Shown here: positions 11,901-58,793 of the stretch, piece after piece
How the letters are laid out: each line of letters begins with the position of its first letter
Position numbering within the stretch: position 1 is the stretch's first letter
Assembly: GCA_963804955.1 (NCBI GenBank)
Contig: CAWDSQ010000007.1
Location: forward strand, 1-64,000
Reading direction: 5' to 3'
Source: an uncultured delta proteobacterium
GTDB taxonomy: Bacteria > Desulfobacterota > WTBG01 > CAIYCZ01 > CAIRTM01
Length of the DNA: 64,000 nt
Notes under the pieces: model-generated
Told to the model about the DNA's origin: nothing
The model's input: only the letters and a program-made list of their open reading frames with translations
Database searches by the model: none
Translations under genes and position numbers: made by a program

Positions 11901-12531
11901 GATCAGTTGCCAGCTCATATAGAACAATCAGCCACCAGCCAGCAGATGTTACTTCATTGGTTAAATTCACAAAATTCCTTGTCGTAATATCGCTGACACG
12001 GTATGCGCCTGTTTTGTGATCAGAAATAAAAGTTGTAACGTCTGCAACAGACTCATAAAAATAATAGGTATTGTTTTGTGTGAAACTGGCGGTTGCGGTG
12101 GCGGCATTCGCATAAAGCGTGCCGTTGTCCGCGACAAACGTGATTGTTGCGGTGGTGTCAATCTCTCCGGAGGTATCGGTATTGCCGGCCCAATACAGAT
12201 AGGCTTTATGAACAATAGCACCGCTGGGCAGGTTGAGCTTTGCGGTCGTGCGGGCGTCGGCAAGAGCTATAGCATTACTTGCTGCAGCGCCGGTATTGGT
12301 GGAGCGCCAAAAGATATCAGCGCCGGAGTCGGTATAATTATTGCCGTAGGCGCCAATAGTGCCGACAACCGGGGCAACTCTGTTCGCATCCTCGCAGTTG
12401 TACCCGATGGGAGCGCCGATCATCTCGAAGTTGCCATGAATGTCGGTCTGGTAACGCAGGGCCGGAGCAGCGGCTGCCGACAGGGGCCAAAGGGTGCAGA
12501 CAAACAGCACTGTTGCGATATAACGTTTCAT
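1..12531 (-). CDS. Giant secreted Cys/Asp-rich repeat protein (signal peptide, DUF11-like domain, MopE-type putative metal-binding motifs); 3'-partial, >4177 aa
   Basis: GGAGG RBS then ATG at 12531: MKRYIATVLFVCTLWPLSAAAAP (signal peptide). The same minus frame runs through the repeat array to base 1; the ORF track shows no stop-terminated ORF from this start, and manual translation around 9.2-9.6 kb is open. Contains KTAVDINGGSLVAGDILEYTITSTNSG (DUF11-like), about 9 Y.D.D.D.Y loops, and CDG.D..C.G.VDEG motifs. Confidence 0.85.
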   Translation of the reverse strand, partial: MKRYIATVLFVCTLWPLSAAAAPALRYQTDIHGNFEMIGAPIGYNCEDANRVAPVVGTIGAYGNNYTDSGADIFWRSTNTGAAASNAIALADARTTAKLNLPSGAIVHKAYLYWAGNTDTSGEIDTTATITFVADNGTLYANAATATASFTQNNTYYFYESVADVTTFISDHKTGAYRVSDITTRNFVNLTNEVTSAGWWLIVLYELATDPLRNLAVFDGLDLVQGNNVAVSATITGFEVPNAGFDAKLAVVALEGDTSITGDSFRFNGNLLSNASNPSNNFFNATRSAMGSPLTVVGDLPQLAGTAGSEGNMDFDIVDIKSYLAVGQTSATISAQSSQDWFWLGFFATSISTYRPDYSSSIKTAVDINGGSLVAGDILEYTITSTNSGNDASINTVLRDPLPTQVTYVPNSLQIVSGANAGAKTDATGDDQGYYTSATRTVYVNLGTGATAAQGGLMNIGDTSVVRFHVQINAGVTGQINNQAIIVSNGAQGAPQEDTPTDGNGGDPGVPPTETVVDECIDDSGCVSPEPYCDTTVSPKVCVVCLVDANCGGATPYCDPATLICVSCVQTGSPPGTEACDGIDNDCDGLFDEGLTQNTYYRDVDGDAYGDPGNTIQACAAPAGYVANSSDCDDTNNAIKPGATEICNGVDDDCDGPVDEGLATYTYYQDADGDTYGNAAIPLYTCLASPPAGFVSNSTDCNDSNNAVYPTRAEVCNTIDDDCDGAIDEGTGFVYYRDADGDTYGNAAVTVRTCVAGAPAGYVSNSTDCDDTRNLVNPGRPDETTVATGRCDGLDNDCDGLIDENRTQNTYYRDADGDGYGDAANTDTGCAAPPGYVSNSTDCNDADITKYQLLSSFRDADLDTYTTGAAQNVCSGATRPSGWRAAANGNDCNDADNTVWQSQTGYQDIDGDTYTIGPVQTFCTNGTLPTGYRAASAGTDCNDNNAAIRPGATELCNGTDDDCDLVVDDGLTLTTYYLDGDGDGRGDVNYSTTACSQPLGYVANSTDCNDNNGSIYQNLSGYVDADLDGYGTGTVQTVCSGVSLPSGYSANNTDCNDGDNSRYQNLTGYADADSDTYTVGGVQTVCSGASLPTVYQASQSATSDCNDAVAAVNPGATETCNGIDDNCVGGVDENLGSTTCGVGVCQVTVQNCVGGVPQTCTSGSPTGTDQNCNGIDEDCSGTADDHYVADSSCFLPGACAAGNVASSCVAGVETGCATGTPAGTDASCDGVDNNCNGAVDEGYVADSSCFLPGACAAGNVASSCVAGVETGCATGTPAGTDASCDGIDNNCNGAVDEGYVADSSCFLPGACAAGNVASSCVAGVETGCATGTPAGTDASCDGIDNNCNGAVDEGYVADSSCFLPGACAAGNAASSCVAGVETGCATGTPAGTDASCDGIDNNCNGAVDEGYVADSSCFLPGACAAGNAASSCVAGVETGCATGTPAGTDASCDGIDNNCNGAVDEGYVADSSCFLPGACAAGNAASSCVAGVETGCATGTPAGTDASCDGIDNNCNGAVDEGYVADSSCFLPGACAAGNAASSCVAGVETGCATGTPAGTDASCDGIDNNCNGAVDEGYVADSSCFLPGACAAGNAASSCVAGVETGCATGTPAGTDASCDGIDNNCNGAVDEGYVADSSCFLPGACAAGNAASSCVAGVETGCATGTPAGTDASCDGIDNNCNGAVDEGYVADSSCFLPGACAAGNAASSCVAGVETGCATGTPAGTDASCDGIDNNCNGAVDEGYVADSSCFLPGACAAGNAASSCVAGVETGCATGTPAGTDASCDGIDNNCNGAVDEGYVADSSCFLPGACAAGNVASSCVAGVETGCATGTPAGTDASCDGIDNNCNGAVDEGYVADSSCFLPGACAAGNAASSCVAGVETGCATGTPAGTDASCDGIDNNCNGAVDEGYVADSSCFLPGACAAGNAASSCVAGVETGCATGTPAGTDASCDGIDNNCNGAVDEGYVADSSCFLPGACAAGNAASSCVAGVETGCATGTPAGTDASCDGIDNNCNGAVDEGYVADSSCFLPGACAAGNAASSCVAGVETGCATGTPAGTDASCDGIDNNCNGAVDEGYVADSSCFLPGACAAGNAASSCVAGVETGCATGTPAGTDASCDGIDNNCNGAVDEGYVADSSCFLPGACAAGNAASSCVAGVETGCATGTPAGTDASCDGIDNNCNGAVDEGYVADSSCFLPGACAAGNAASSCVAGVETGCATGTPAGTDASCDGIDNNCNGAVDEGYVADSSCFLPGACAAGNVASSCVAGVETGCATGTPAGTDASCDGIDNNCNGAVDEGYVADSSCFLPGACAAGNVASSCVAGVETGCATGTPAGTDASCDGIDNNCNGAVDEGYVADSSCFLPGACAAGNAASSCVAGVETGCATGTPAGTDASCDGIDNNCNGAVDEGYVADSSCFLPGACAAGNAASSCVAGVETGCATGTPAGTDASCDGIDNNCNGAVDEGYVADSSCFLPGACAAGNAASSCVAGVETGCATGTPAGTDASCDGIDNNCNGAVDEGYVADSSCFLPGACAAGNAASSCVAGVETGCATGTPAGTDASCDGIDNNCNGAVDEGYVADSSCFLPGACAAGNAASSCVAGVETGCATGTPAGTDASCDGIDNNCNGAVDEGYVADSSCFLPGACAAGNAASSCVAGVETGCATGTPAGTDASCDGIDNNCNGAVDEGYVADSSCFLPGACAAGNAASSCVAGVETGCATGTPAGTDASCDGIDNNCNGAVDEGYVADSSCFLPGACAAGNAASSCVAGVETGCATGTPAGTDASCDGIDNNCNGAVDEGYVADSSCFLPGACAAGNAASSCVAGVETGCATGTPAGTDASCDGIDNNCNGAVDEGYVADSSCFLPGACAAGNAASSCVAGVETGCATGTPAGTDASCDGIDNNCNGAVDEGYVADSSCFLPGACAAGNAASSCVAGVETGCATGTPAGTDASCDGIDNNCNGAVDEGYVADSSCFLPGACAAGNAASSCVAGVETGCATGTPAGTDASCDGIDNNCNGAVDEGYVADSSCFLPGACAAGNAASSCVAGVETGCATGTPAGTDASCDGIDNNCNGAVDEGYVADSSCFLPGACAAGNAASSCVAGVETGCATGTPAGTDASCDGIDNNCNGAVDEGYVADSSCFLPGACAAGNAASSCVAGVETGCATGTPAGTDASCDGIDNNCNGAVDEGYVADSSCFLPGACAAGNAASSCVAGVETGCATGTPAGTDASCDGIDNNCNGAVDEGYVADSSCFLPGACAAGNAASSCVAGVETGCATGTPAGTDASCDGIDNNCNGAVDEGYVADSSCFLPGACAAGNAASSCVAGVETGCATGTPAGTDASCDGIDNNCNGAVDEGYVADSSCFLPGACAAGNAASSCVAGVETGCATGTPAGTDASCDGIDNNCNGAVDEGYVADSSCFLPGACAAGNAASSCVAGVETGCATGTPAGTDASCDGIDNNCNGAVDEGYVADSSCFLPGACAAGNVASSCVAGVETGCATGTPAGTDASCDGIDNNCNGAVDEEYVADSSCFLPGACAAGNVASSCVAGVETGCATGTPAGTDASCDGIDNNCNGAVDEGYVADSSCFLPGACAAGNVASSCVAGVETGCATGTPAGTDASCDGIDNNCNGAVDEGYVADSSCFLPGACAAGNAASSCVAGVETGCATGTPAGTDASCDGIDNNCNGAVDEGYVADSSCFLPGACAAGNAASSCVAGVETGCATGTPAGTDASCDGIDNNCNGAVDEEYVADSSCFLPGACAAGNAASSCVAGVETGCATGTPAGTDASCDGIDNNCNGAVDEEYVADSSCFLPGACAAGNAASSCVAGVETGCATGTPAGTDASCDGIDNNCNGAVDEGYVADSSCFLPGACAAGNAASSCVAGVETGCATGTPAGTDASCDGIDNNCNGAVDEEYVADSSCFLPGACAAGNAASSCVAGVETGCATGTPAGTDASCDGIDNNCNGAVDEEYVADSSCFLPGACAAGNAASSCVAGVETGCATGTPAGTDASCDGIDNNCNGAVDEGYVADSSCFLPGACAAGNAASSCVAGVETGCATGTPAGTDASCDGIDNNCNGAVDEGYVADSSCFLPGACAAGNAASSCVAGVETGCATGTPAGTDASCDGIDNNCNGAVDEGYVADSSCFLPGACAAGNAASSCV

Positions 12532-13314
12532 CAAAGGATACCTCCCGGTAATTTTAGACTTTTCCAAACTCTCCAGGTTGACTGCAATTGCAGCGCTCTC
12601 TACGTATGTGGGAACAGTTAGTGGCTGCAATTCCACAAAGCAATCAGAGAACACATTGCATAAGCTTTTAGTTAGACGTTCAACCAGCATATAGGCTCCA
12701 ATGATATATAAATTTTTCGGCAAAAATCTTCATATAAACAATGCAGATTACTGACATCTTTTCGGCAAAAAAATTTTTTGCATAACTTTATATTACACGA
12801 AACATGCCATGTTCAAAAAAAGGCTAAATTTTAGACCTAATAATTATAAAAATAACGGTATTAATGCTATTTTTTAATGCCTTTTTTAGTTTCATTATGG
12901 GCTAATTTAAAACTATTTTTATAAAAAAGCCTGCAAATTTTTTACGTGAAAGCGTTTTTTCATATACTTTTCATGTTGTCTAAATGCTTAAAAAGTGTAC
13001 CATCATACGCTTTTGTAGCGTGCATTTGTGAACCCACCTGCTTGCTTTCAACACAAAATCAGACTATATCTAGCCTGGCAAACCTGCTTGCGTTTTGGCA
13101 GAAAGTTCATATATGATGAGGTAGTATAAAGCTAAATAAACTGTTGTTGTTCGACGACGAACAGTAGACTCTGCCATTGTTCGCAATGATTACCATACGC
13201 CACGGCGTACTCCACGCAATAACCTGCGCTGGAACTTTCACGAGACAGTCCTTTTTAAACAACAAAAAACTTCTGTTTGCCGGGACCCTAATAATCCTAA
13301 TGGTGTGGTGAAAT

Positions 13315-14547
13315 TTGAAAAGAAATCTATTTCAACTCTATATTTTCTGCATTGCCGGATTCATGCCTCTGGTATTGACGCCTTGGAGGGAAGACTCATT
13401 CTATGATGGTAAAATAACTTTTGCTGCTGCAATTACAGGGCTTTATGTACTCATAAAAATTTTTTTAAAGCCAAAAATTTCCTGGCGGCGCTTGGAAAGT
13501 ATTGAATGGTTGTTGGTGACTTATGGGCTGCTCGTACTGCTATCGACTGCATTTTCAATGGACAGGGGTTCGAGCATATGGGGCCAACCGTATATGAGAG
13601 AAGGAATGGTTTCACTCGTACTCTATGTTGTAATCTTTTATCTCTTCTATAAGGAATCCAGGGTTTCGAAAGTATGTCTAGAGGCGATTTTGGTTTGCGC
13701 AACCGTTGTCAGCCTTTATGGAATTTTACAATACTACAAAATTGTGGAGGGAGCCCTTGTGTTAGTAAGGGGTGGATGGGAACAAAGGATGAGCACCATT
13801 GGAAGCCGAAATTTTGCAGGCACCTATAGCATGCTGTTTTTACCCATCGCGTGCGGCCTCTATCTCTATGAACAACGCATGCGGGGGCTATTGTATGCAG
13901 GAATTCTGTTCGCCCTTTTAATGGCAAGCCAAACCAGGAGCGCATGGATTGCTCTGATGGTATGCCTGCCGCTGTTTTTTGCATTTAGCCTTCGCGATAA
14001 AGAAAAGCTGAAACGATGGGGGATACTTATACTGCTGTTCGTAGCGATATTTGGGGTGATGAACCATACAAAAAAAGATGCGCTCGCGAATCGGGCCAAA
14101 ACAGTGGTAAGCGATGCCCAAAACATTAAACAGGATTCAGCCGGATCTCATAGAATATTTTACTGGAAGCGCACACTGCCATTACTGTTTGAACGGCCAT
14201 GGCTCGGCAGCGGGCCTGACACCTATGGGCAGGTAATGCGAAATGAGTACGGTGAGATCTCTATGCATTTTCCAAAGGCTCATAATGAATATCTACAAAT
14301 GCTGATAACAGTAGGATGGCCAGCAACAATCATGTATCTGATGATAGTCGGATGGGTTTTGCTGCGGGTCGTCAAAGGAATACAAAAAGAGCCCTTACAG
14401 CAGGTGTTGTTCTGCTGCATTGCGGGGTACCTGGTTCAGGCTTTTTTTAATATCAGCGTGATCTCAACGGCACCGATCTTTTGGGCAATGCTGGGGATCG
14501 GGGCAAGACTGCAGGTGGGGAAGGAATCAAATGTAAAAATGTTTTAA
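13315..14547 (+). CDS. O-antigen ligase family (Wzy_C / O-OTase-like) membrane protein
   Basis: Many hydrophobic segments; motifs SQTRSAW, R..YWK...L..ERPWLGSGPDTY and KAHNEYLQ. Confidence 0.85.
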   Translation: MKRNLFQLYIFCIAGFMPLVLTPWREDSFYDGKITFAAAITGLYVLIKIFLKPKISWRRLESIEWLLVTYGLLVLLSTAFSMDRGSSIWGQPYMREGMVSLVLYVVIFYLFYKESRVSKVCLEAILVCATVVSLYGILQYYKIVEGALVLVRGGWEQRMSTIGSRNFAGTYSMLFLPIACGLYLYEQRMRGLLYAGILFALLMASQTRSAWIALMVCLPLFFAFSLRDKEKLKRWGILILLFVAIFGVMNHTKKDALANRAKTVVSDAQNIKQDSAGSHRIFYWKRTLPLLFERPWLGSGPDTYGQVMRNEYGEISMHFPKAHNEYLQMLITVGWPATIMYLMIVGWVLLRVVKGIQKEPLQQVLFCCIAGYLVQAFFNISVISTAPIFWAMLGIGARLQVGKESNVKMF

Positions 14548-14662
14548 ATTACTGCTTATTGCCCGCAGCCAGAGGTCATTTTTTATAAATAAAAATTGCT
14601 GCAGGCAATAAAAAAGGGTTGCAGTAGACGCTAAAAATCCACTGTAACCCTTTGTATTTCCC

Positions 14663-14737
14663 TGGTGGGCGATACTGGATTTGAACCAGTGACTTCCACC
14701 GTGTGAAGGTGGCACTCTCCCGCTGAGTTAATCGCCC
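14663..14737 (-). tRNA. tRNA-Val (anticodon CAC)
   Basis: Reverse complement GGGCGATTAACTCAGCGGGAGAGTGCCACCTTCACACGGTGGAAGTCACTGGTTCAAATCCAGTATCGCCCACCA folds as a cloverleaf with a TTCAAAT T-loop, CAC anticodon and encoded CCA. Confidence 0.95.
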
Positions 14738-14817
14738 GAAATTACAAAAAATATATCAATTACCCCTGTCAAACGCAAGGGGAAAGTGCTTGGCCAGGTT
14801 ACAAAAACCACACCCTC

Positions 14818-16425
14818 TCAAAGCGCAGGCAAAAAATGCAGGGCGTCCTCAGGAATAGGGTCAACCGATGCCGGCAGACAGACAACATTCTGCACTAGCG
14901 TTTCGGCCTCGGCAAGTATCGACTTATCAAGCAGCACCATCTGAGCGCCCTGCTTAGAGGCATTGCCAACAAAGCTGACCCTTGATTCAAGGACAGGAGG
15001 CAGCAAACCCAGATTGAAAAGAGCCGACGGATCAGACAGTGCCCCGAATGCCCCGCTTACGAGCACGCGATCCACATCCTTGCAGCCAATACCAGCATGG
15101 TCAAGAAGCCGCTGGAGAAGGTCTATTACACGGGCTTTCGCAGCTCGCAGCAGATAAAGGTCATCCTGCGTGACGAAAATATCGGTAGAAAAGATGCCAT
15201 CGTCAGTGTACAAACGAAAAGCAGTGCGTCCATCAGCATCAATAAACCCGAAAGTCGAATCCTGCAGATTCTGCTGCCTTTGAAAAACACCATGGTCATC
15301 AATAAGCCCTGCCTGCTTGAGGGCTGCAGCAAGTTCCAGAAGGCCGCTGCCGCAAATTCCGCGCGGCAAACTCTCGCCGATAACGGAAATGCTGAATGCA
15401 TTTCCATCACGCGCCACATGCTCAATGGCTCCTGTTTCCGGCCGCATGCCGAAGGTGATACCAACGCAGTCAAATGCAACGCATTCCGCGGCTCCTGCTG
15501 CCGTAACAACGCCCCGGTGATACAGCACCGCCCTGGCATTCGTGCCCAGATCAAGCAGCAGGGTGGTGTCGCTGCTTTTATGCAGCCTGGTTGCAAGAAT
15601 TGCCGCCGTCATGTCTGCGCCGGCATAGGAGGAAATAACCGGAAGAGCATACACGCGAGCCCGGTGAGATGACTTGATATCGAACTGCCCGGCATGGTAG
15701 CTGCCGTCTTTAGGCCCAAGGCTCTGCTCAAGCGGATTCCACACCCCCTTAAGCATAAGATGCAGCATGCCGGTTTCACCTGAAACGACGATCTCGCACA
15801 CCTGCTCAGGCTCAACCCCTGCTGCCCGGCACATCTCTTCAATAAGAATATCTATCCGCAGAAGCAGCTCCTCATTGAGCACCTCAAGATTTATCTCGCT
15901 CTCCTCAACCATGGCCACGCGCTGCACGAAATCTGCCCCGAGCTCAATTTGCGGGTTCGTGTCGGTAACGACAGCAATTTTTCTACCGCGGAACAGGTCG
16001 ACAAGCGACAGCATGAGCGTATTAACACCAAGATCAACTGCAACGGCAAATGATCCTTGCGCCGCTCCCGATTGAACGATCGGCGTAATCGGTTCATCCA
16101 TAAGGGCGATGGTGAAAGGCATTTTGTAGAGAATTTCGACAGTGGTATCCTGAATGACGCGGGCCTGGCAGGCAAGCCTGATACCTTTGGAAAATTCTTC
16201 ATCGGTCAGGCAGCCCCGCTCCGTAGGTGTTACCGGTCCCATCTGCTGAAAAGCCCGCACCTTACACTTGCGGCAAATGCCCTCGGCTCCGCAGGCAAAG
16301 TGCAGATCGATGCCGTGAGGATTACACTCAAGGATAGTTTCAAATATTGATTTTCGATCTTCGACCTTGATAACCTTGTTCTCAGGAAGACAGGTTACTG
16401 TATGGAATTTGGTATTCTGAGCCAT
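14818..16425 (-). CDS. ASKHA-family corrinoid reductive activator-like protein (RACo/DUF4445) with N-terminal [2Fe-2S] domain
   Basis: N-terminal C.AEG.C.KC...RLACQ; later AVDLG, LLDLGTN, RGICGSG, VSGAFG and VGNASKQGA motifs. Confidence 0.85.
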   Translation of the reverse strand: MAQNTKFHTVTCLPENKVIKVEDRKSIFETILECNPHGIDLHFACGAEGICRKCKVRAFQQMGPVTPTERGCLTDEEFSKGIRLACQARVIQDTTVEILYKMPFTIALMDEPITPIVQSGAAQGSFAVAVDLGVNTLMLSLVDLFRGRKIAVVTDTNPQIELGADFVQRVAMVEESEINLEVLNEELLLRIDILIEEMCRAAGVEPEQVCEIVVSGETGMLHLMLKGVWNPLEQSLGPKDGSYHAGQFDIKSSHRARVYALPVISSYAGADMTAAILATRLHKSSDTTLLLDLGTNARAVLYHRGVVTAAGAAECVAFDCVGITFGMRPETGAIEHVARDGNAFSISVIGESLPRGICGSGLLELAAALKQAGLIDDHGVFQRQQNLQDSTFGFIDADGRTAFRLYTDDGIFSTDIFVTQDDLYLLRAAKARVIDLLQRLLDHAGIGCKDVDRVLVSGAFGALSDPSALFNLGLLPPVLESRVSFVGNASKQGAQMVLLDKSILAEAETLVQNVVCLPASVDPIPEDALHFLPAL

Positions 16426-46738: not shown

Positions 46739-47700
46739 TTACTTCTTTACCGGCATGCTTCCAGTTGCTCAAGCACTCAGCTGATCATCATTCCATGCAC
46801 CCAGGTGCACTACGGGAATTGAAGAAGGCACTCCTGACCGGTCCACCATGGAACGGAATTTCATGCTCGCTGTGAATGCTCTCCGCGCTTATGTTGACGG
46901 CGAAACCAGTATCTTTTTGACGCCGCCGGCAAGTAGCCCCTGCACAGCGGCTGTATGTCCGGCTGCTTGAATTCCATATAGGCAAGAGCGATATGAGCTC
47001 TTTTAAAGCCTTCGGCCGCAAGCAGCTTTTTTGTTTCCAGCCGGAATGAGTTCTCCTGCTCGGGCTGTGTTTTAAATAAGGCGTCCCAGGATGCGGGCTG
47101 GCCATGGGCACCAGCAGAATGCCGATATCGGATTTGTCCATATCCACTGAGGCCCTGAGTGCGCGCTCGACGTTCATGCGCATCAGCCGCTGGAGTTTTT
47201 AGCGTATCCGTGAACGCACAGCTTCACGCCGTGTTTTTCAGGCTGCAGAGCTCGATCTCTTTCGGCCCATAGCGGAGTGATCCGAATCGGTAAGCCAGAC
47301 ATTGCGAAGTACACGCCGGTCAAGCCCCCTCATGTAAGGCGCGGGCTGCCGCGACATCGGCATGCTGGGCGTCGTTCGGAAGCGGCGATATGCACACGGG
47401 AATTGAGGATCGCACTTTTTCCGGTATAAAGCCTCGATCCGCTCCATGGATGCGTATTTCATGCGGTTATGAAAGCTCTCGGCGCTTAAATTGACCGGAT
47501 TCAACCAGGACTTTCTTGAAAAAAAACGGCCTGAAGGGCCAGGCACAAACGGCACGCCGGTTTCATCCGATTTCATGTCGGATGGCATGATTTCCATGCC
47601 GGCAAAAGCGCCATCGTACGTCTCTAAGGCTCGCCGTGGGTAAAACAGATGATGGCTGTATGCCCAGGCGATGTTGAGCGCACCGGCGCGGGCTGTTTTT
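46739..47700 (-). pseudogene. Class II (CbiX/SirB/ferrochelatase-like) chelatase gene broken by multiple indels
   Basis: Stitched across frames: GHTAIICFTHGEP, DETGVPFVP..FRPFFF, DIGILLVAHGQPASW...EQENSFR, IALAYMEFKQPDI, GGVKKIL, ISAESIHSEHEIP, LGAWND. Confidence 0.7.
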
Positions 47701-48044
47701 CAAATACCGGCGTCCCAGGTACACGGGCAGGCGATAAGCTACCAGCGAATGCCGCACATCAGCAGAGCCCGAGTCCATAGTCACCTGCGGACCTTGATTG
47801 CAAGCTCGCACGATCATGCGCATCAGACGTCAGGAATTTTTGAGCGTATCGGAAACGCACAGCCGGCACGCCATATTGTTCAGGCTGCAATGCCTCGATA
47901 TCGTACTGCGAGACCCCTGCGACAAGGGAATAAACGCTGCAATCATACCGTATACAAAACCCCGACATTTAAAAGAATAAGGCGGTCAGTCGCCGTCCTG
48001 TACGGCGACTAAAGCGCCGCTCCTCCGTTAACATTCATAAATCG

Positions 48045-48069
48045 GTAGGGGCTCAAAATTTTGAGCCCC
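48045..48069. repeat. GTAG-headed REP-like perfect palindrome
   Basis: GTAG overlapping the 22-bp palindrome GGGGCTCAAAATTTTGAGCCCC. Confidence 0.5.
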
Positions 48070-48082
48070 GGCATTGGAACCG

Positions 48083-48856
48083 TTACAATTTTATAAGAAA
48101 CTGCTCCGGCCTCTTGGACCGCGGCGCGCGCAACGACTTCAAAGGTGCGGTTCTTCATGGCCGGGTTCTCCAGGGCATCAACGCACACGCGGGCAATCTG
48201 CTCGCGCTTCACGCGGCCCGTGATCTTGCCGCCCTCGCCGAAGGCGACTTCATCAGGACTTTTACCTTCGTGTACCCGCCGGGCCGTATGATCGTGTAAT
48301 CGATCCCGCAGGACTGAATGAATGCCTCGCTCTTGTCCCTTGTGACTCAGCACGCTCATCATTGGCCATCTATACATGGGCGATACGGCATCGCGGCTGT
48401 TGCCAACCCCGACGGATGAAATGACAACGATCTGCTTGAGGCCCTTTGCCTTGGCGGCCCGCGCAAGGTTCTGGTTACCCATATTGTCGATCTTGTCGTT
48501 TTCCGACCCCTGAAGGGCTTTTTGGAGCCGATGGCGCTTATCATGTAGTGCGCGCCTTCCATGGCCTTCTCAAGAACGGCACAGAGGTAAGATCCCCTCA
48601 GCGCACGGTCTACACCCGTGAGGCCGCAGGTTGGAGCCGAGTCAAACGGCGGCACCATGAGGGCCCGCACCTTGTAGCCCCGCTTCAAAAGCTCCTGCAC
48701 CACCAGCCTGGCCTGTCCCTGCCGTGGCGCCTGCAACCACTACTGTTTTTTCACCGAGCCATACTTGCCTCCTTGCAATATATTTTGTGGATAGCGCTTC
48801 GCAGGCCCAACCGACATCCAAGAAAAAACCAATAAAACTAAAGGACCGATATGCAT
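48083..48856 (-). CDS. NAD(P)H-binding atypical SDR family protein (frameshifted in this sequence)
   Basis: VVVAGAT...RLVVQELLKRGYKVRAL, GNQNLARAAKAKGLKQIVVISSVGVG, REQIARVCVDAL...NRTFEV in different frames. Confidence 0.75.
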
Positions 48857-48858
48857 TT

Positions 48859-50586
48859 TTACATCCCAACTCTTTTCTGAACTCCTCCACCGTCGCGCCA
48901 ATGACAGTTATCCCGTGATTTGCCGCGGGCATAATCCTCGGTGCCGGAAACTGCGGCCTGACGGAAGGGCGACGGCACAAGCTCGAGCATGCCCTTTGCC
49001 TCGTCATCCCACGGCATGGTGAAGGTGAGGCTTGAGATCGGCACTTCTTCATCTTCTTCTGCGGCCGGGGGAGGTACTGCGTCATCGCCAAAGACAGCCG
49101 AAAACTTGGCCTTGAACTTGGTTGGCGTAAACTTATCGGATACTTCCCGAAAGATTGTTACCGTCACATTAGTGCCCCGCTCTTTGGCGATCTGCTCGGC
49201 AACGGAATGCAGCTTTTTTAGGGCTGTAGCACGCACGAAGTGCGGTATCATCTCGCCAACCTTTATCATGGCCTGCTCTGCCGCGATGTCCCAGGGCACT
49301 GAGCCCGTGGAGATGGAGCCCATCATATCGCCCTTGGTCTCAAGGAATATGCCCATATAGACCTCGTTCACCAGGCCCTCAACAAGGTACTTGGCGCCCA
49401 TAAAGCCCATAAACGGGCAGTTCTCCGAGCTCAAATACCCGATGGTGGGAATATCCGAGAAAATAAAATTTTTGAACCCCTCATCCATGCTCACTTTCTT
49501 ATCATAGAAGTTGCCATAGATTACCATGGGGCCTTTTTCAACGAACTTGTCGCGCTTCTCCTCAATGGTGGGGCATATGAGCACATCATCGCACAGGGCC
49601 TCGAGGCGCTTTGCCGCATCGTGGTTGCTCACCGCAGTCATGACGATGCCAACGCCCACCTCTTTATTCAAAAACTCGCTGATGCCCACGGCATAGGTGT
49701 TGGCATTTTCAAGTGACAATGCCGCGGTCATTTCAAAGGTGACGGCAAAGACCATATTTGACGAAATGAACTCGAAGGCATTGGCCATCGTTTCTTTCAG
49801 ATACGGCGTCGCATCGATCTTGAAAAAACCGGCGACGCTCTCAAGCCATGCCGCAGAATTCCCGAACCCGATGGGGATAATGTCCGCCATATATGGAATG
49901 CCGAAGCGTTTCTCCATTTCCTGAGCCACCCGCACACCGCTGTCATAGGGGTAGATGCAGAGATTGAGCTCTGCCTGCGCAGCATTTTTAATCTGGCCGA
50001 TGGTTGCGCCTGCAGTGTAGACGCAGTTGACGGTGACGCCGATGCCGGCGAGCATCCGCGTCAGCTCATACACGTCGGCGCGCCAGTTGAAGGTCGAAAA
50101 CGTTGGGCCGATGATGTTGACCGACCGGGGGACTTTTTTGACCGCCGGGTCGACAAGATCAAGAATGCGGATAAAGGCAGTCTCCTTGCCCTCCACAAGC
50201 GAACCGCCGATGGGCGGGTGGATAATGACAGTGTCTTTAAAGCCAACCTTCTTCACAATGCCTTCCACATCGTCGCGCGTCACCTCGACAGTGGGAGCGG
50301 TCACGATTAAAATTGCGCCGGGCTTTTTTGCCGCGATCTTCTCGAGCGTGGTCTCCATGCGGTCTTCGGCGCCCTGCATGATGTTGGCATACGAGAGGTT
50401 GGTCGAATACAGCTCGCAGGACCAGTCATTGACCAGGGCATTCACATGCTGGTTTATGTAGCAGCCCGGGGGCGAATGAAAGATGGTGTCCGCGCCCTTG
50501 ATGCCCAGGCAGGTCCAGAGAGCACCCTCAAAAGCCGAGGGAGTGTGCAGCTCCTGCATTTTGAAATCTTTTTGTGTCTCATTCAT
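48859..50586 (-). CDS. Nitrogenase component-1-like subunit, BchB/BchZ-like, with two C-terminal PCP_red-like domains
   Basis: PSAFEGA, HSPPGC, VNIIGPT..TFNWRAD..EL.RML, PFMGFMGA; tails WDIAAE...IPHFVR and WDDEAK.MLELVPSPFR. Confidence 0.85.
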   Translation of the reverse strand: MNETQKDFKMQELHTPSAFEGALWTCLGIKGADTIFHSPPGCYINQHVNALVNDWSCELYSTNLSYANIMQGAEDRMETTLEKIAAKKPGAILIVTAPTVEVTRDDVEGIVKKVGFKDTVIIHPPIGGSLVEGKETAFIRILDLVDPAVKKVPRSVNIIGPTFSTFNWRADVYELTRMLAGIGVTVNCVYTAGATIGQIKNAAQAELNLCIYPYDSGVRVAQEMEKRFGIPYMADIIPIGFGNSAAWLESVAGFFKIDATPYLKETMANAFEFISSNMVFAVTFEMTAALSLENANTYAVGISEFLNKEVGVGIVMTAVSNHDAAKRLEALCDDVLICPTIEEKRDKFVEKGPMVIYGNFYDKKVSMDEGFKNFIFSDIPTIGYLSSENCPFMGFMGAKYLVEGLVNEVYMGIFLETKGDMMGSISTGSVPWDIAAEQAMIKVGEMIPHFVRATALKKLHSVAEQIAKERGTNVTVTIFREVSDKFTPTKFKAKFSAVFGDDAVPPPAAEEDEEVPISSLTFTMPWDDEAKGMLELVPSPFRQAAVSGTEDYARGKSRDNCHWRDGGGVQKRVGM

Positions 50587-50587
50587 G

Positions 50588-51824
50588 TCAGCCTCCATAT
50601 TTCCGCACAAGGCCCTGCCAGGTTTCATAGACGGGCTTGTGCATGTTTTTGAAGAAATTAGTGCCAAGATCGATTGCATAATCGTAGCCGTACTCACACA
50701 GGTACAGCATGTTGATGAACGTGGGCACGAGGCGCGACACGCACTCGGGCTGTGCTTGAAATTCAACCGACACGGCCGTGGGCTTAATCCTGTCGATTAC
50801 GTCGCCGATCAGGTCGAAATCCTCCTCGATAAAGGTAACGCCGTAGCGCTCCTGCATGAGCTTTTTTTCCTGCTGGTAAAATTTATTCTTCATGGACGGC
50901 ACCACAAAAACCTCGGCGCCGAACTCGGCAAAAATCTTGCCGACTGACACTTCGTTTGCCGGTCCTGCCACCATGAGCATGCGGACCTTCTCTTTGGCAA
51001 AACGCTCCCGGATTTTCTCAAGCTCCGGCTTCACGCGCTTTTCCTCTTCATCCACAAGGTCATGCAGCTTTTGATTGTTCATCCTGTCGGCAATAGCGCG
51101 CAGGAAGTTTGACGTGCCCTGAATGCCCGTGGGAATCTCGATAAACTCAACCTCGCCGCCGAAGTTTTCATTCAGGTGCTTGCAGGTAAGCCAGGGTGTT
51201 ATGTGAATGGGATAAGTATTTTTCCGCGCAGACGATCTTAGCCATGCTGTCGATATGGGGCGTGGGAAAGACGAAGTACGGGATATCGGCCTTTTTGAAA
51301 AACATCTCAAGAGAGGCAAGATTGCCCGCGTCCTGGCCCGTGCGGCCGACAATGCCGATAGAGCCGGGCACCTTCTCCTGTTTCTCAAACGTGTCGAGCA
51401 CCGCAACCCAGGCGGCATCAGAGCCCAGGGGCATGGAGCGCGGATAGTTGAAACCGGTAAGGCAGGTGCTCACTTTCAGCTCCGGGATTTCCTTTTTGAG
51501 CTCTATGATAACGCCTTCAATATCCTCGCCGATAAGCTGGGGAATGCAGGTATTGATGATGACGATGACTTTAGGGTGATATTTGTTATAAAGGTTCTTG
51601 ACCTGCAGCTTTAGGCCTGCCTCGCCGCCGAAAATGACGTCGCTTTTGTTGACAAGCGTACCGGCAGTCACAAGCTGCGCCGGTCGGCATGACATGGAGC
51701 CCACCTGGTTCTGGTACGAGCAGGGCTGGGGCCCGTGCAGAAGCGGTATGACGCCTTCGATTTTGCCCAGGCTTGCCAGGGCCTGAATCGTGGAGCAGCA
51801 GTGTTCATAGTGTTTCAGGGGCAT
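50588..51824 (-). CDS. Nitrogenase component-1-like subunit, BchN/BchY/CfbD-like, about 411 aa (1-nt frameshift near 51220)
   Basis: HCC, LHGPQPC, DVIFGGE..L, NTCIPQLIGEDI; later PTGIQGT.NFL..IA and YGYD; removing one A from the A5 run joins the two ORFs. Confidence 0.85.
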
Positions 51825-51972: not shown

Positions 51973-52848
51973 TTATTCTGCGTCCTGCACTTGCTTCAGT
52001 GCTTCCTTCCCGCAGCCTGGGCCCACCAGGCATGGCAGCTCTTCAAAAGTGAACGACGCGGGCACGGAAAGTTCCTTGTTGTTCCAGATCGACTCTGACA
52101 ACTGCCGAAACGCCTCGCACTCGGCTGTATCTGGCGCATGCTGGAAGAGTGTCAGGCCCTTGCCGGAGCACTCTTTTATCTTTTCGCTGTAGGGAATAAA
52201 TCCGACAAGATGGCTGCCAAGCTTTCGGGAAAATTCATCCAGAATGGTCTGCTCATCCTTAAGCTCCCGGCCATTGCCGATAATGCCGCCGAGCCTGACG
52301 CCCGAACGGGAATTGAAGCGCGATACAGCCTTGCAAATATTGGAGGCGGCAAATAAAACCTCCAGCTCGCCGCTGCTCACGATATAGACCTCGTCGGCAT
52401 GGCCTTCGCGAATAGGCATGGAGAAACCGCCGCACACCACGTCACCGAGCACGTCATAGAGAACCACATCGAGCTTCAGAACCTCCATCACATTGAGATG
52501 CTTGAGCGCCTCTATGGCCTCCACCACCCCCTTGCCCCCGCAGCCAAGCCCGGGGTCAGGCCCGCCGCTTTCCGCACAGAAAATCTTGCCGGAGCAGGTA
52601 TCGTTGAGAGGGCTTTCAAACACCACCTCGTCCATGGTGAGGGATTTCACCTCAAAGTTCTTCTTCCGCAGAATCCCCAGCACTGTCTGGGGCATTTTGC
52701 CTTTCAGCAGCAGACGCGTGCTGTCATGCTTGGGGTCGCAGCCCACATGCAGAACCCTTAATCCTTTGGCCGCAAGGGCAAAAGTTATATGGGATGACAC
52801 CATGGACTTGCCGATACCTCCCTTACCGTAAATAGCTATCTGGCGCAT
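51973..52848 (-). CDS. NifH/BchL/BchX-family Fe-protein ATPase, copy 2
   Basis: YGKGGIGKSM, GCDPKHDST, ESGGPDPGLGCGGKG, DVLGDVVCGGF. Confidence 0.93.
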   Translation of the reverse strand: MRQIAIYGKGGIGKSMVSSHITFALAAKGLRVLHVGCDPKHDSTRLLLKGKMPQTVLGILRKKNFEVKSLTMDEVVFESPLNDTCSGKIFCAESGGPDPGLGCGGKGVVEAIEALKHLNVMEVLKLDVVLYDVLGDVVCGGFSMPIREGHADEVYIVSSGELEVLFAASNICKAVSRFNSRSGVRLGGIIGNGRELKDEQTILDEFSRKLGSHLVGFIPYSEKIKECSGKGLTLFQHAPDTAECEAFRQLSESIWNNKELSVPASFTFEELPCLVGPGCGKEALKQVQDAE

Positions 52849-52905
52849 AGTGAGACCTCTGTGATATTTGTTGTGGCGAATTTCTTAATTATTCGTTCAG
52901 AAAAT

Positions 52906-53010
52906 TTTGTTGGGTTCGCCCTGTTACAGCAGTTTTTTCACCATCACCTGATTTTTTGCCGGTGGGATTGAGTAACAGAGGCAACATTTTTGTCCGGGCT
53001 TAACCCAACC
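52906..53010. repeat. REP-like intergenic element (similar copy at 28405-28510)
   Basis: TTTGTTGGGTTCGCCC ... TCCGGGCTTAACCCAACC; the ends are partly complementary. Confidence 0.55.
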
Positions 53011-53052
53011 ATCTAGAATGCTAAAAAGGTTGTCGGCATTCACGCCTGCCAG

Positions 53053-53892
53053 CTAATTTATATACGGCAGCCACCAGTCATAGAGCTCTTCAAACTCAAG
53101 GGTATTCGGAATGACAAGATTTTTATTGTCAAACACCTTCTGCCCGATCTCGCGGTAGAGATTCGCCTCCGGCGAATCCGGCGCGCATTGAAACACGGTT
53201 TCGCCATCGCCGCCGCATTGCTTCACGGTCTGGCTGTAGGGAATGACGCCCACGATCTGCGTGCCGATCTTTTGAGCAAAATCAGTCACCATCTGAAGTT
53301 CATTCTTCACGCGTCGCAGGTTAACGATGAGCCCGCCGAGCTTTGAGCCGGCCCGAGCGTCAAAGCGCTTGATTGCCTTTGACACATTGCTGACTTGATA
53401 GAGCGCCTCGAACTCGCCGCTGGTCACCACATAGGTTTCCTGCGCAAAGCCCTGGCGTATGGGCAGGGAAAAACCGCCGCAGACGACATCGCCCAGGATG
53501 TCATAAATAACGACATCGATATCAAGGGCCTTGAATATACTGAGTTTTTTTATCGTGTCGATGGCTTCAACCACGCCCTTGCCGCCGCAGCCCACCCCCG
53601 GCTCGGGCCCGCCGCTTTCAGCGCAGTAGATTTTGCCGCCGTTTTCAAACTGCAGGGGCGATGTGGTGATGATGTCCTCGGGAGAAAGGTCGTCGTACAT
53701 GAAATCATTTTTGCGCAGCACGTCAAGAATCGTGGGCGGAAAGTCAGGCAGCAGAAGGTAGGTGCTGTCATTTTTCGGGCTGCAGCCCATCTGCAGCACC
53801 TTCATTCCCCGCTCGGCAAAAGTGTAGGATAGATGGGATGCAACCGTCGACTTCCCTATGCCGCCTTTACCGTAAAGTGCTATCTGCCGCAT
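53053..53892 (-). CDS. NifH/BchL/BchX-family Fe-protein ATPase, copy 1
   Basis: YGKGGIGKST, GCSPKNDST, ESGGPEPGVGCGGKG, DILGDVVCGGF. Confidence 0.93.
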   Translation of the reverse strand: MRQIALYGKGGIGKSTVASHLSYTFAERGMKVLQMGCSPKNDSTYLLLPDFPPTILDVLRKNDFMYDDLSPEDIITTSPLQFENGGKIYCAESGGPEPGVGCGGKGVVEAIDTIKKLSIFKALDIDVVIYDILGDVVCGGFSLPIRQGFAQETYVVTSGEFEALYQVSNVSKAIKRFDARAGSKLGGLIVNLRRVKNELQMVTDFAQKIGTQIVGVIPYSQTVKQCGGDGETVFQCAPDSPEANLYREIGQKVFDNKNLVIPNTLEFEELYDWWLPYIN

Positions 53893-53910: not shown

Positions 53911-54384
53911 TTATAATGGACAGCGACATCGTTTCATAATTGAGCTTGCGGCGCGCAGCGATTTCAGCAGGCGCGTACGCTGCTTTTCGTCAAGACAACC
54001 AAAAATATTCATCAGCTCCTGCTTACGCGCCTTTAAAATACTGCCGTGAGCTTTTTTCCCGCTGTCTGTCATCTGCACTTTAACGACCCGCCGGTCACCC
54101 GTGTCGCGAATGCGCTCGACAAAACCCTCGTCAACGAGCCTGTCGACGACCTCTGTCATGCAGGGCATTTTCACATTGGCGATTTTGCACAGCTCGCCCA
54201 TGCTGTAGCGCCGGTCTTCATGAAAGGCCGACATAGCCTTGAGCTGCGAGCTGTTGACCGGGAACCCCATCAGCCCCTTGCTGCTCATAACCATTTGCTG
54301 AAAAAGGTCCGTAAAAAGATTACGGATCTCGATTAAATGCATTTCTATTTCGGTAAGCTCACTGAGTTGCTTGCTGTCCCCCAC
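53911..54384 (-). CDS. MarR family transcriptional regulator
   Basis: SMGEL...VKMP.MTEVVDRLV.EGFVERIRD..DRRVV.V..T..G. Confidence 0.92.
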   Translation of the reverse strand: MGDSKQLSELTEIEMHLIEIRNLFTDLFQQMVMSSKGLMGFPVNSSQLKAMSAFHEDRRYSMGELCKIANVKMPCMTEVVDRLVDEGFVERIRDTGDRRVVKVQMTDSGKKAHGSILKARKQELMNIFGCLDEKQRTRLLKSLRAASSIMKRCRCPL

Positions 54385-54747: not shown

Positions 54748-55218
54748 CTAGGGCTTGGTTGTCTTCTTTAATATGCCCGAAACTTTTCGCAAGGCCGTGA
54801 GCAGTTCATCCTGATCCTTCTGTGAAAGTTTGCCAAAAAGATTGCCCATTTCCTCACGGCGGCGGCCTATGAACTTGTCGTGAATCTTTTTGCCCGCATC
54901 CGTCAGCGCCACTTTGACCACGCGGCGGTCCTTGGTGTCGCGCACCCGCTTGAGCAAGCCCTCGGACTCGAGCCGATCTACCATCTCGGTCATGCTGGGC
55001 ATCTTCACCAAAGCGTTCCTGCTCAGCTCCGTCATACTGTACTCGCGGTCTTCGTGAAATGCGGTAAGCGCCTTCATCTGCGAAAGCGTTACGGACATAT
55101 CGCTTATACGGCGGCTGCCCTTGACCATTTTGTTGAATATCTGCACGAAAAGGTTGCGCACCTCTATCATGTGTTCTTCAATCTCAGTGACTTTTTCCAT
55201 AAAAACCTTATTATCCAT
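54748..55218 (-). CDS. MarR family transcriptional regulator (paralog of 53911-54384)
   Basis: YSMTELSR..LVKMPSMTEMVDRLE.EGLLKRVRD.KDRRVV.V.LT..G. Confidence 0.92.
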   Translation of the reverse strand: MDNKVFMEKVTEIEEHMIEVRNLFVQIFNKMVKGSRRISDMSVTLSQMKALTAFHEDREYSMTELSRNALVKMPSMTEMVDRLESEGLLKRVRDTKDRRVVKVALTDAGKKIHDKFIGRRREEMGNLFGKLSQKDQDELLTALRKVSGILKKTTKP

Positions 55219-55257
55219 ATGCGGCCTCATTTTAGAATTTTTAATATTTCATTTCCT

Positions 55258-57922: not shown

Positions 57923-58793
57923 TTATTCGTGGTGGTGTGCATAGACTGTTTTATCCAGATTTTTCACAAGGCCCGGAATCAGGCTGAACGGGAAGCATAC
58001 CAGAAGCTCATCATCCTTCAAGCGCATGAATGTTCTCCCGCCGTGGTCGCCTGCGGTGAAGGCAGGCCGGTTATTGGCAAGGGTTGAGGGAATGGTCATG
58101 AGGCAGGTTGATTTGCCCGCAAAGCCGGTGATAATCTCGCCGGTATCAAAAGCAAATGCAGTCGAGATGGCGGCCAACTGCGCAGGCGTAGCCGGAAAAA
58201 GCACGAGTTCTGGCCTGGTCTATCTCTTCAAAAGCACCGATGACCATACCCTTAAAAATATGGCTGAAGCGGGAAAATGCATCCCTGTTTTTTGTCATCG
58301 GCTCTCGCGAGGCATACAGGTTCCCTTCGCCAACGACGGATGCTTCAAGAGCCGCATCAAACTCCTCGCGCGTGACGCGTTTGGCGCCGAGGCCCATGTT
58401 TGCGCATCCTCCGCACATGCTCGCTTCAGCGGAAAAAAACAGCGGTGCCCCCTGGCCCTCGAATATGTCGCCGCATATGGCGCACCAGAACTGCGGGCCT
58501 TCCTCAACCGGAACATTAGAGGGCGCTTTGTCAAAAAATTTCATAGCCGCAATAGCTCGTGAAAGGCCGAGTTTATTCTTAAGGCAGAAAGCAAGTCTTT
58601 TCACATCGAGCATGGCATCTATAGCGCCCCTGCCAATGGCTCCGACAGGGCAATAGCGCACGCAGACCCCGCAGTCGCAGCACATGTCGGTGACGGCAAC
58701 TGTATCTTCCCGGCGGACGATGGCACGGTTAGGGCAGTTGCCGATGCAGGATCCGCACCGGGCGCAGAGTTCATCATTGATAGTAAACGGCAT
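57923..58793 (-). CDS. 2x[4Fe-4S] ferredoxin domain fused to DUF169-like domain (frameshift near 58218)
   Basis: CARCGSCIGNCP and CCDCGVCVRYCP, then WC, C.G..NMG; continues PELVLFPATPAQL...STC...GD.GGR...LKDDELLV.FP in the next frame. Confidence 0.75.

Follow-up and report, generated by a model that had tools for sequence, protein, structure and literature searches.

This locus raises the question of whether two adjacent genes for NifH-like Fe proteins, here called H1 and H2, encode the unequal halves of one dimeric component. Both lie on the minus strand of the window (the whole stretch of DNA analysed, 64,000 nucleotides long), which belongs to contig 7 in the genome of an uncultured delta proteobacterium (4.26 Mb, 36 contigs, 87% complete). 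According to the accessible part of a 2026 review (PMC13474568), the Fe proteins of nitrogenase and nitrogenase-like systems are all described as homodimers, and the word 'heterodimer' is used there only for interfaces of component 1 (NifDK-type). Sequence comparison indicates that the tandem pair is ancient, conserved, and asymmetric. It is fairly probable, with somewhat better than even chances, that H1 and H2 form a heterodimeric Fe protein that is hydrolysis-impaired at one of its ATP sites and feeds two catalytic subunits (D and K) that resemble dark-operative protochlorophyllide oxidoreductase (DPOR) and chlorophyllide oxidoreductase (COR) and probably reduce a tetrapyrrole. The stronger proposal, that the heterodimer is obligate, binds two ATP and hydrolyses one per electron, and that evolution produced such a design at least two times (in a gene pair and in a fused chain), is held more tentatively, its chances being a little short of even.

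The tandem pair and its conservation

Both proteins match the Fer4_NifH family (PF00142, cut-off 25 bits) and are 52% identical to each other over 271 residues. The two genes and their diagnostic motifs are as follows.

53053-53892, minus strand: H1, NifH-like Fe-protein paralog, 279 amino acids (aa), PF00142 290.3 bits
53845-53871, minus strand: H1 P-loop GKGGIGKST, residues 8-16
53761-53787, minus strand: H1 switch I GCSPKNDST, residues 36-44
53779-53781, minus strand: H1 Ser38 codon AGC
53575-53598, minus strand: H1 cluster loop GVGCGGKG, with ligand Cys102 and with Lys105 at the NifH Arg100 position
53470-53502, minus strand: H1 switch II DILGDVVCGGF, with ligand Cys138
51973-52848, minus strand: H2, NifH-like Fe-protein paralog, 291 aa as read, PF00142 304.8 bits
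52801-52827, minus strand: H2 P-loop GKGGIGKSM, residues 8-16
52717-52743, minus strand: H2 switch I GCDPKHDST (canonical), residues 36-44
52528-52551, minus strand: H2 cluster loop GLGCGGKG, with ligand Cys103 and with Lys106 at the Arg100 position
52423-52455, minus strand: H2 switch II DVLGDVVCGGF, with ligand Cys139

The deviant Walker A motif GKGGIGKS with its signature Lys, the two Cys ligands (Cys97 and Cys132 in Av-NifH), and a switch II of the form DxxGDVVCGGF are present in both copies. The NifH loop GVGCAGRG aligns with GVGCGGKG of H1, and the first-pass annotation had correctly read both cluster Cys and a Lys in place of Arg100 in each protein. Switch I of the form GCDPKxDST is found in H2 but not in H1, which has GCSPKNDST; by alignment, H1 Ser38 falls on what we take to be Asp39 in Av-NifH numbering. 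The contrast drawn in the same annotation between H1 (GKST intact, switch I GCSPKND) and H2 (GCDPKHD, P-loop GKSM) holds in the window and is conserved among relatives. Thus, in the window and 19 related loci, GKST together with GCSPKNDST occurs in 18 of 19 H1 rows (the 19th is a fragment without the N-terminus) and GCDPKHDST in 20 of 20 H2 rows, while the H2 P-loop reads GKSM in 18 of the 20, with one GKSI and one fragment.

A check of the AGC codon in homologs had also been proposed, and Ser is retained there in all 17 scorable genes of relatives (AGC in 13, AGT in 4), which rules out a consensus error in this codon. Contigs from three public runs span 53779-53781, and the differences listed for them include none at these positions. 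The ratio of nonsynonymous to synonymous substitution rates (dN/dS) is 0.03-0.07 for H1 against five relatives and 0.03-0.08 for H1 and H2 taken together, indicating strong purifying selection. Nineteen positions are fixed differently between the H1 and H2 clades, with no obvious charge complementarity. In comparison with NifH and the Fe protein of methylthio-alkane reductase, H1 and H2 both have an insertion of about 9 residues (residues ~60-85) between switch I and the first cluster loop (window ~53640-53715 and ~52590-52670), a region that we take to be the docking face of NifH.

As for the end of H2, the window reads FEELPCLVGPGCGKEALKQVQDAE before the stop at 51973, while all 21 other H2-type rows listed have FEEL, FDEL, FEDL, or FEAL followed by [HY]xWW near the end. 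The alternative frame of the window ends in HAWWAQAAGRKH with a stop at 51996-51998, and the ending of the closest relatives, FEELHAWWAQAAGRKH, is exactly what that frame yields. The contig of run X2 omits one letter at 52036. A surplus base near 52036 is the probable cause of the stop at 51973; the true stop would then lie at 51996-51998, and the protein would have 283 aa.

Among 41 genomes of the window's relatives, 22 contain a match to the pair. In 20 of these 22, H1 and H2 are intact, adjacent, and on one strand with H1 first; in G016 both copies are present in frameshifted pieces, and G008 has a single copy. The whole row H1-H2-D-K recurs in relatives wherever contigs allow. Of 401 genomes sampled evenly across the phylum, only 8 have the pair, all from the window's own class; six further matches are single genes with 45-46% identity. 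Outside the phylum, the pair occurs in 3 of 201 genomes of a gammaproteobacterial order, adjacent in all three and again in the row H1-H2-D-K, and a Spirochaetota contig of 13,267 bp carries one H1-type and one H2-type protein. Orthologous clusters with only one Fe protein had been named beforehand as a finding that would speak against a heterodimer; the clusters contain both genes. The source genome, at 87% completeness, has no further NifH-like gene above 23 bits and only a single D/K pair, and the idea that H1 and H2 serve two different D/K enzymes in this genome is rejected, as there is only one.

Trees were computed for the pair from many loci together with database relatives, single-copy representatives, and the halves of the fused proteins described below; the single-copy rows include P0137 and P0170, which pass the NifH cut-off, and P0130, which passes that of CfbC. 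Support values are 100/99 for the clade uniting H1, H2, and P0131, 100/99 for H1 by itself, and 96/98 for H2 by itself, which argues that the pair stems from one duplication predating its spread across phyla. The single H protein of G008 nests within the H2 clade, and the single copy is therefore a secondary state. Its P-loop is GKSI, and Arg is back at the Arg100 position; the D/K pair that precedes it shares only 47-52% identity with that of the window in tblastn pieces.

Two loci differ from the usual layout. In L055 (G008:C88; open reading frames (ORFs) 10978-15146 and 6996-8483), a sister system from the window's family, the order is D-K-H; K is split over two ORFs, and a gene for a B12-binding radical SAM protein lies upstream. 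In L037 (8543-10807, genome G023), H1-H2-D-K is followed by a second D-like gene of 415 aa without a K partner and then by a ferrochelatase/CbiX-like gene.

One-sided change of the ATP site and natural fused proteins

The best 120 database relatives of H1 comprise 7 H2-type proteins, 2 N-terminally truncated ones, and 111 scorable H1-type proteins. Switch I is altered in 103 of the 111, reading SPK in 80, DPQ in 15, and DPM in combination with the P-loop GKGS in 8, and canonical DPK is kept in the remaining 8. In contrast, all 112 scorable proteins out of 115 of the H2 type read DPKHDS. The H2-type P-loop is YGKGGIGKSM in 104 of 115; among the other 11, GKCM, GMGKSM, GKSI, and GKST occur once each and 7 have no P-loop match. 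At the Arg100 position, H2-type cluster loops have Lys in 108 and Arg in 4 of the 112 matched.

According to the tree, switch I is degenerate in 26 of 34 H1 rows through at least 3 independent changes, versus 0 of 28 H2 rows and no change, with the signature Lys kept in all 34 H1 rows and the trans Lys in all H2 rows. Within the gammaproteobacterial order, G607 has a canonical H1, that of G041 carries Lys41Gln, and that of G600 Gly12Ser plus Lys41Met, while the H2 partner stays constant. Since G607 has an intact switch I in H1 beside a GKSM-type H2, pairing came first and the decay of H1 later. The one-sided decay of switch I is the strongest pattern within the family. Repeated drift of one partner's nucleotide site would be expected if a shared dimer needs one good site, and would not be expected of two independent homodimeric enzymes.

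The first-pass annotation had regarded the motif changes in the two copies as complementary, which is not borne out. The Thr17-to-Met replacement of H2 is a clade-wide trait: after GKS, Met stands throughout the H2 clade, the lone H of G008 has Ile, and the basal P0131 has Phe (GKSF). A hydrophobic residue is found here in single-copy relatives as well (GKSI in P0138, GKSM in P0229, GKSV in P0243), and neither copy has lost any part of the Walker A core GKGGIGKS. Because single-copy relatives share this feature, GKSM is best read as a trait of the lineage and not as a defect balancing Ser39. GKSM as an inactivating change is rejected on the same ground, and proteins with a hydrophobic residue at this position presumably work.

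The same asymmetry is met in natural proteins that contain two NifH modules in one chain. An exhaustive profile search with H2 recovered such fused proteins of 571-596 aa, and more were found among the matches of a search for longer relatives of H1. One cluster at 90% identity has at least 8 full-length members of 584 aa and another at least 10 of 596-598 aa; the members are drawn from ENA, JGI, Logan, and NCBI and include proteins of Syntrophales metagenome-assembled genomes. Uninterrupted frames of 584 and 590 aa occur in two genomes that are 99-100% complete. The fused NifH-NifH proteins are not gene-calling accidents. They are annotated as 'ArsA-related P-loop ATPase' or as hypothetical, and their source names are Syntrophales, Binatia, Chloroflexota, Myxococcales, Dehalococcoidia, and Nitrospinae. 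Examples are L058:8346-10100 (G067), L059:8598-10352 (G323), and the proteins P0121, P0124, P0127-P0129, and P0308-P0407.

Motifs were counted in 97 listed proteins of 540-640 aa. At the Asp39 position the N-half has Ser in 90 and the C-half Asp in 94 of the 97, and the N-half often lacks Asp43 as well (SPKTSL, SPKSSL, SPKANV). The signature Lys is replaced by Thr or Asn in 58 of 94 C-halves and is present in all 92 N-halves in which the motif was detected. An alignment of 63 fused proteins has an invariant Ser and Lys in the N-half, D-P-K-x-D-S in the C-half, and all four Cys. The signature Lys of known Fe proteins reaches across into the partner's site. With this geometry, the motif pattern is what a pseudo-dimer of the N- and C-halves with a single live site would show. 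The live site would be made up of the C-half and the N-half Lys; the N-half site would be dead, so that the trans Lys of the C-half would be dispensable.

Regarding structure, AlphaFold2 gives the 584-aa fused chain a predicted local distance difference test score (pLDDT) of 89.7 and a predicted template modelling score (pTM) of 0.86, with disorder only in the linker 282-307, and both halves of the model match NifH chains at Z ~40. A two-halved solved chain such as ArsA, aligning over both halves of the model, is absent from the 50 rows listed (Foldseek, VIA-align), which contain single-half matches only.

In the tree, the N-halves group with the unfused P0163 and P0175, and the C-halves with P0177; the two resulting clades are sisters and stand apart from H1 and H2. 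Forcing H1 together with the N-halves in a 44-row tree (LG+G4) is 99 log-likelihood units worse, with a p-value of 0.00014 in the approximately unbiased (AU) test. The separate clades and the AU result argue that the change of Asp to Ser in one partner arose twice. As for positions changing in parallel between H1/H2 and the N/C halves, nothing firm was found beyond Asp39, and only Asp-to-Ser is firmly parallel. Among the longer H1 relatives listed, no fused form exceeds 46% identity to H1, so the window's family stays split.

The fused gene of G323 has as neighbours two Oxidored_nitro genes and genes for a 3-hydroxyacyl-CoA dehydrogenase, an aldehyde dehydrogenase, an AMP-binding CoA ligase, and a molybdopterin oxidoreductase, and that of G067 has an enoyl-CoA hydratase and a CoA ligase. 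This context hints that the fused proteins belong to a reductase powered by ATP whose substrate is an acyl-CoA, perhaps aromatic or alicyclic. Other fusions were also seen. NifH is joined to Oxidored_nitro in chains of ~630-750 aa (P0133, P0134, P0140, P0136), and single chains of ~1080-1100 aa combine NifH-NifH-Oxidored_nitro (P0125, P0336, P0340-P0353); P0125 has the canonical motifs (GCDPKHDS, Arg100) in each of its two H modules.

The operon and its catalytic partner

All genes of the operon lie on the minus strand in the order MarR-MarR-H1-H2-D-K. Its other members and the two genes next to it are listed below.

54748-55230, minus strand: MarR-family regulator, 160 aa, first gene of the cluster (PF01047, 44 bits)
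53911-54384, minus strand: MarR-family regulator, 157 aa, directly upstream of H1 (PF01047, 41.3 bits)
50588-51824, minus strand: D-like catalytic subunit (Oxidored_nitro, PF00148) in two frames, 51168-51824 and 50588-51187
48859-50586, minus strand: K-like catalytic subunit, 575 aa, BchB-like with a C-terminal PCP_red domain (PF00148 195.6 bits; PF08369 35.4 bits, cut-off 32.5 bits)
48114-48709, minus strand: NAD(P)H-binding NmrA-like reductase gene in pieces (two frames by tblastn with the intact homologue of G006)
46781-47902, minus strand: ferrochelatase/CbiX-like gene in several frames (7 pieces by tblastn with the same-genus homologue of G003)

The best solved relative of K is BchB (3aet_B, 70.9 bits). 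K scores 148.9 bits with the BchB model TIGR01278 (cut-off 490.35) and 114.7 bits with the BchZ model TIGR02014 (cut-off 529), below the cut-off in both cases. Cys42 of K aligns with position 36 of BchB, where the chain 3aet_B also reads Cys; we take 3aet to be the Asp36Cys variant and position 36 to be that of the cluster ligand Asp36 of wild-type DPOR. D carries Cys at all three positions where it is usually found (HCCST, HGPQPC, NTCIPQ), and among solved proteins it is closest to NifE, NifN, and NifK, not to BchN. The Cys positions of D together with Cys42 of K suggest an arrangement without a P-cluster plus cofactor. The subunits would probably hold a single inter-subunit [4Fe-4S] cluster as in DPOR/COR, bound by three Cys of D and one of K. 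This agrees with the result for nifB, the gene of the NifB/MarB radical-SAM cofactor maturase expected of a nitrogenase or Mar-type system: TIGR01290 has no match in the source genome, although at 87% completeness its absence is not proven.

The neighbours of the pair recur to a varying extent. An NmrA-like NAD(P)H-binding reductase gene is found in G006, G607, and the window, and a ferrochelatase/CbiX-like gene in G003, G023, and, broken, in the window; the G006 locus also has a ferredoxin-dependent bilin reductase nearby, and that of G009 has HemL and HemB. Judging from these recurring genes, our best guess for the substrate is a tetrapyrrole or bilin, a tentative assignment whose odds come close to even. 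DUF1302 outer-membrane proteins are encoded near the pair in G009, G013, and G017. The flanks differ in the Gammaproteobacteria, which have major facilitator superfamily (MFS) transporters, glyoxalase-fold proteins, a FAD_binding_4 oxidase, and a pyrogallol-hydroxytransferase-like molybdoenzyme.

A MarR gene stands directly upstream of the pair in most loci, and the upstream MarR regulators probably control the operon. The regulator at 54748-55230 has a homologous gene upstream in the same-genus locus L028. Look-alike ORFs of ~160-175 aa occur directly upstream of H1 in L028, L029, L030, L033, L037, and L044, the one in L029 scoring as MarR. Counts of promoters and terminators are at chance level, and no terminator-like site was found between H1 and H2.

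Several genes of the window's own copy are interrupted. In D, the PF00148 match is divided between two frames (profile positions 1-198 in one, 208-343 in the other), and the offset is 637 nt in the window versus 636 nt in relatives, which stay in frame; alignment with L046, L043, and L028 places one extra base near 51213-51216. The contig of run X3 omits one letter at 51213, while the contigs of run X1 leave 51231-51417 uncovered and give no difference at the D indel. The last ~14 residues of K are garbled relative to relatives by two compensating indels within ~40 bases (near 48865 and 48906), and the run X1 contig omits one letter at 48906. The piece 48009-48482 of the NmrA-like gene matches PF13460, and this gene is intact in G006 and G607; the G003 homologue of the chelatase-like gene matches PF01903 and PF00762. 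In total, at least 5 genes in ~7 kb differ from relatives by 1-base indels (the 3' end of H2, D, K, and the NmrA-like and chelatase-like genes), all of which are kept intact by relatives. Because of these intact copies and of the dN/dS of H1 and H2, consensus indel errors are more likely than decay.

Elsewhere in the window, an open frame of at least 4241 aa on the minus strand (1-12723) runs off the window start. G+C content is 64% over the first ~8 kb, where the GC skew is near -0.3, versus ~50% elsewhere, and the opposite strand of this frame has shadow ORFs of ~3000 aa; the giant frame is probably a huge repetitive surface protein. The minus-strand ORF 58146-58793 has an N-terminal 2x[4Fe-4S] ferredoxin domain and a weak DUF169 match (25.7 bits, below the cut-off of 27).

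Readings of the pair and known Fe proteins

In a heterodimer of H1 and H2, one [4Fe-4S] cluster would be bridged by Cys102 and Cys138 of H1 and Cys103 and Cys139 of H2. ATP would be bound at both sites, as both Walker A motifs are complete, and binding would be needed for closing and docking. The switch I Asp takes part in water activation in related deviant-Walker-A ATPases. Since the H1 site lacks this Asp, hydrolysis would occur mainly or only in the H2 site, aided in trans by the signature Lys of H1. The cost would be ~1 ATP per electron instead of two; alternatively, the ATP bound to H1 might serve as a slow latch. The unequal dimer would dock in one fixed orientation on the unequal D/K. 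The first-pass annotation had proposed a heterodimer with non-equivalent ATP sites, and of this the conserved unequal unit stands, given adjacency, the single D/K, decay confined to H1, and the fused analogue, while the mixed dimer itself remains a comparative proposal.

Several points weigh against the heterodimer with one working site. All of its support is comparative, and neighbouring paralogs could form two homodimers. Given the 8 canonical proteins among the 111 of the H1 type, asymmetric ATP sites are not obligatory for the pair. The H1 site is only mildly altered and may still hydrolyse ATP, because it retains Asp43, Lys41, switch II, and Walker A, with the trans Lys supplied by H2 in all rows. 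NifH with Asp39Asn forms a tight, non-dissociating complex, and by analogy the Ser39 site might lock rather than save ATP. The PDB entry 1xd8 bears the title 'Nitrogenase Fe protein Asp39Asn'. An H2-derived protein can evidently serve alone, as in G008, and the window's own H1-H2-D-K locus may be damaged or mis-assembled, given the indels in H2, D, and K. As for the fused family, the fixed N-C arrangement has the pTM of 0.86 as its one basis, the group for the AU test was named after the tree had been seen, and gene conversion that took place long ago between the tandem copies could give the appearance of independent duplications.

Two separate homodimers, in which H2-H2 would be the working reductase of D/K and H1-H1, a poor hydrolyser, a factor for maturation or insertion of the D/K cluster or a regulatory lock, are unlikely but have some evidence behind them. 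A split into one catalytic and one assembly or regulatory Fe protein was the alternative offered by the first-pass annotation, and it stays in contention. The tight complex of NifH Asp39Asn would suit a lock of this kind, the cluster Cys and Walker A of H1 fit a protein that docks without hydrolysing, and in G008 a single H2-derived protein stands alone with a D/K pair. The accessible part of PMC9571451 also describes NifH as combining reductase and assembly roles in one protein. Against this, adjacency is strictly 1:1 and in fixed order across phyla, and the fused family joins Ser-type and Asp-type modules 1:1 in one chain. Loss of Lys in 58 of 94 fused C-halves would cripple a C-C homodimer and be harmless in an N-C pair. 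Moreover, decay hits H1 only after pairing, as the intact H1 of G607 indicates, and H1 is as constrained as H2.

It is very improbable that H1 and H2 are interchangeable isoforms, that is, active homodimers or perhaps random mixed dimers serving the same D/K under different conditions, with motifs that tune rate or redox potential. All ligands and switch II are indeed present in both copies, and switch I is entirely canonical in 8 of the 111 proteins of the H1 type. However, isoforms of this kind should often be reduced to one, and only 1 of the 22 matching genomes is single-copy, in a rearranged locus; the two clades stay distinct with their 19 differently fixed positions, and motif decay is strictly one-sided. 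Compatible with any of these readings, and distinctly unlikely, is a young pseudogene cluster in the window with real frameshifts. The 1-base indels in at least 5 genes within ~7 kb are what such a cluster would show, but contigs of other runs (at least 90% likeness) omit letters at 48906, 51213, and 52036, the relatives G003 and G016 show indels elsewhere, as consensus errors would, and the two indels of K compensate each other within ~40 bases. These two relatives bear MFD isolate names, and we take MFD assemblies to be long-read. The dN/dS of 0.03-0.08 for H1 and H2 likewise speaks against decay.

Should the stronger proposal of an obligate heterodimer with one hydrolysis per electron be correct, Fe proteins need not be symmetric two-ATP machines, nature would already have run the test of whether both hydrolysis events are needed, and these anaerobes would have an ATP-coupled reductase working at half the usual price, in this case on a tetrapyrrole-type substrate. 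A natural pair with one altered site, together with a natural fused form, provides material for studying ATP per electron, the order of the sites, and docking orientation. The pair also marks an uncharacterised DPOR/COR-like enzyme in relatives of sulfate reducers, which may perform a new anaerobic tetrapyrrole reduction, because chelatase-like, bilin-reductase, and NAD(P)H-reductase genes adjoin it. Surveys that count nifH-like genes will meet H1/H2-type sequences labelled NifH: sources call them 'nitrogenase iron protein NifH', although they fail the cut-off of the NifH model. The reason why two ATP are spent per electron, and the need for both hydrolysis events, have so far been approached only with engineered proteins such as linked BchL (PMC7948495).

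According to the NCBIfam models, H1 and H2 score 300.5 and 296.2 bits for NifH (TIGR01287, cut-off 394.35), 297.4 and 294.7 for CfbC (NF033200, cut-off 402), 207.7 and 217.9 for BchL (TIGR01281, cut-off 345.15), and 176.1 and 183.2 for BchX (TIGR02016, cut-off 331.2), respectively. They thus belong to the Fe-protein superfamily yet stay below every equivalog cut-off. The nearest solved relatives are 9fmg_D of the methylthio-alkane reductase complex (244 bits), NifH (~225), and BchL (153-160), and identity to a NifH representative is 42%. The accessible part of PMC13474568 states that Arg100 is kept in all Fe proteins except BchL/ChlL; Lys at this position in both H1 and H2 contradicts that generalisation.

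A full-text literature search, with figures and supplements outside its scope, found no heterodimeric, tandem, or NifH-NifH fused Fe protein, and no heterodimeric or fused one appears in the accessible text of PMC13474568, 10.1101/765248, PMC13753814, 10.64898/2026.08.20.746119, and PMC3464626. Dos Santos et al. 2012, in the accessible part, mention only nifH-nifE-like fusions.

In comparison with NifH, MarH, CfbC, BchL/ChlL, and BchX, the two proteins share the PF00142 fold family, the signature Lys, switch II, and the two cluster Cys. The known homodimeric Fe proteins, however, are made from one gene product, whereas here two diverged paralogs come together and H1 lacks the switch I Asp. The partner of CfbC would be a single CfbD, and H1/H2 stand with a D/K pair. 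DPOR and COR resemble the present system in the BchB-like K, the PCP_red tail (otherwise known from BchB), and the tetrapyrrole-linked neighbours. Unlike DPOR, K has Cys and not Asp at BchB position 36 and D is nearest to NifE/NifN/NifK, and the source organism gives no sign of phototrophy in the data examined. Regarding Group VI (Meheust et al. 2020; by description, a NifH sister of group V with a radical-SAM-rich neighbourhood), H1 and H2 score nearer to NifH and CfbC than to BchL, and a radical SAM gene stands next to the single-H locus of G008 but not next to the window operon.

Like H1/H2, the fused family has the Ser-type module before the Asp-type one, the same Ser/Asp asymmetry, and all four Cys. 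It differs in being one polypeptide from a separate duplication, 32-46% identical to H1 (best local alignments), in a decay that is further along (Asp43 of the N-half often lost, trans Lys of the C-half lost), and in a context of acyl-CoA metabolism versus tetrapyrrole metabolism. Unequal P-loop pairs are known from ArsA, which has two unequal halves in one chain, from BcrA/BcrD of class I benzoyl-CoA reductase, and from Nbp35-Cfd1. Two of these three have a bridging [4Fe-4S] cluster, and all belong to different families, BcrA/D having another fold.

The artificially linked BchL dimer (Corless et al. 2020, PMC7948495, accessible part) is active, with a rate of protochlorophyllide reduction similar to that of unlinked BchL, and loss of ATP binding in one half (Lys44Ala) abolishes activity, which fits the retention of Walker A in H1, H2, and both fused halves. 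As far as that part of the source goes, linked BchL resembles H1/H2 in that the two ATP sites are separable and the halves need not be identical copies. It is, however, artificial and changed in the Walker A Lys, whereas the natural H1 keeps Walker A and alters switch I.

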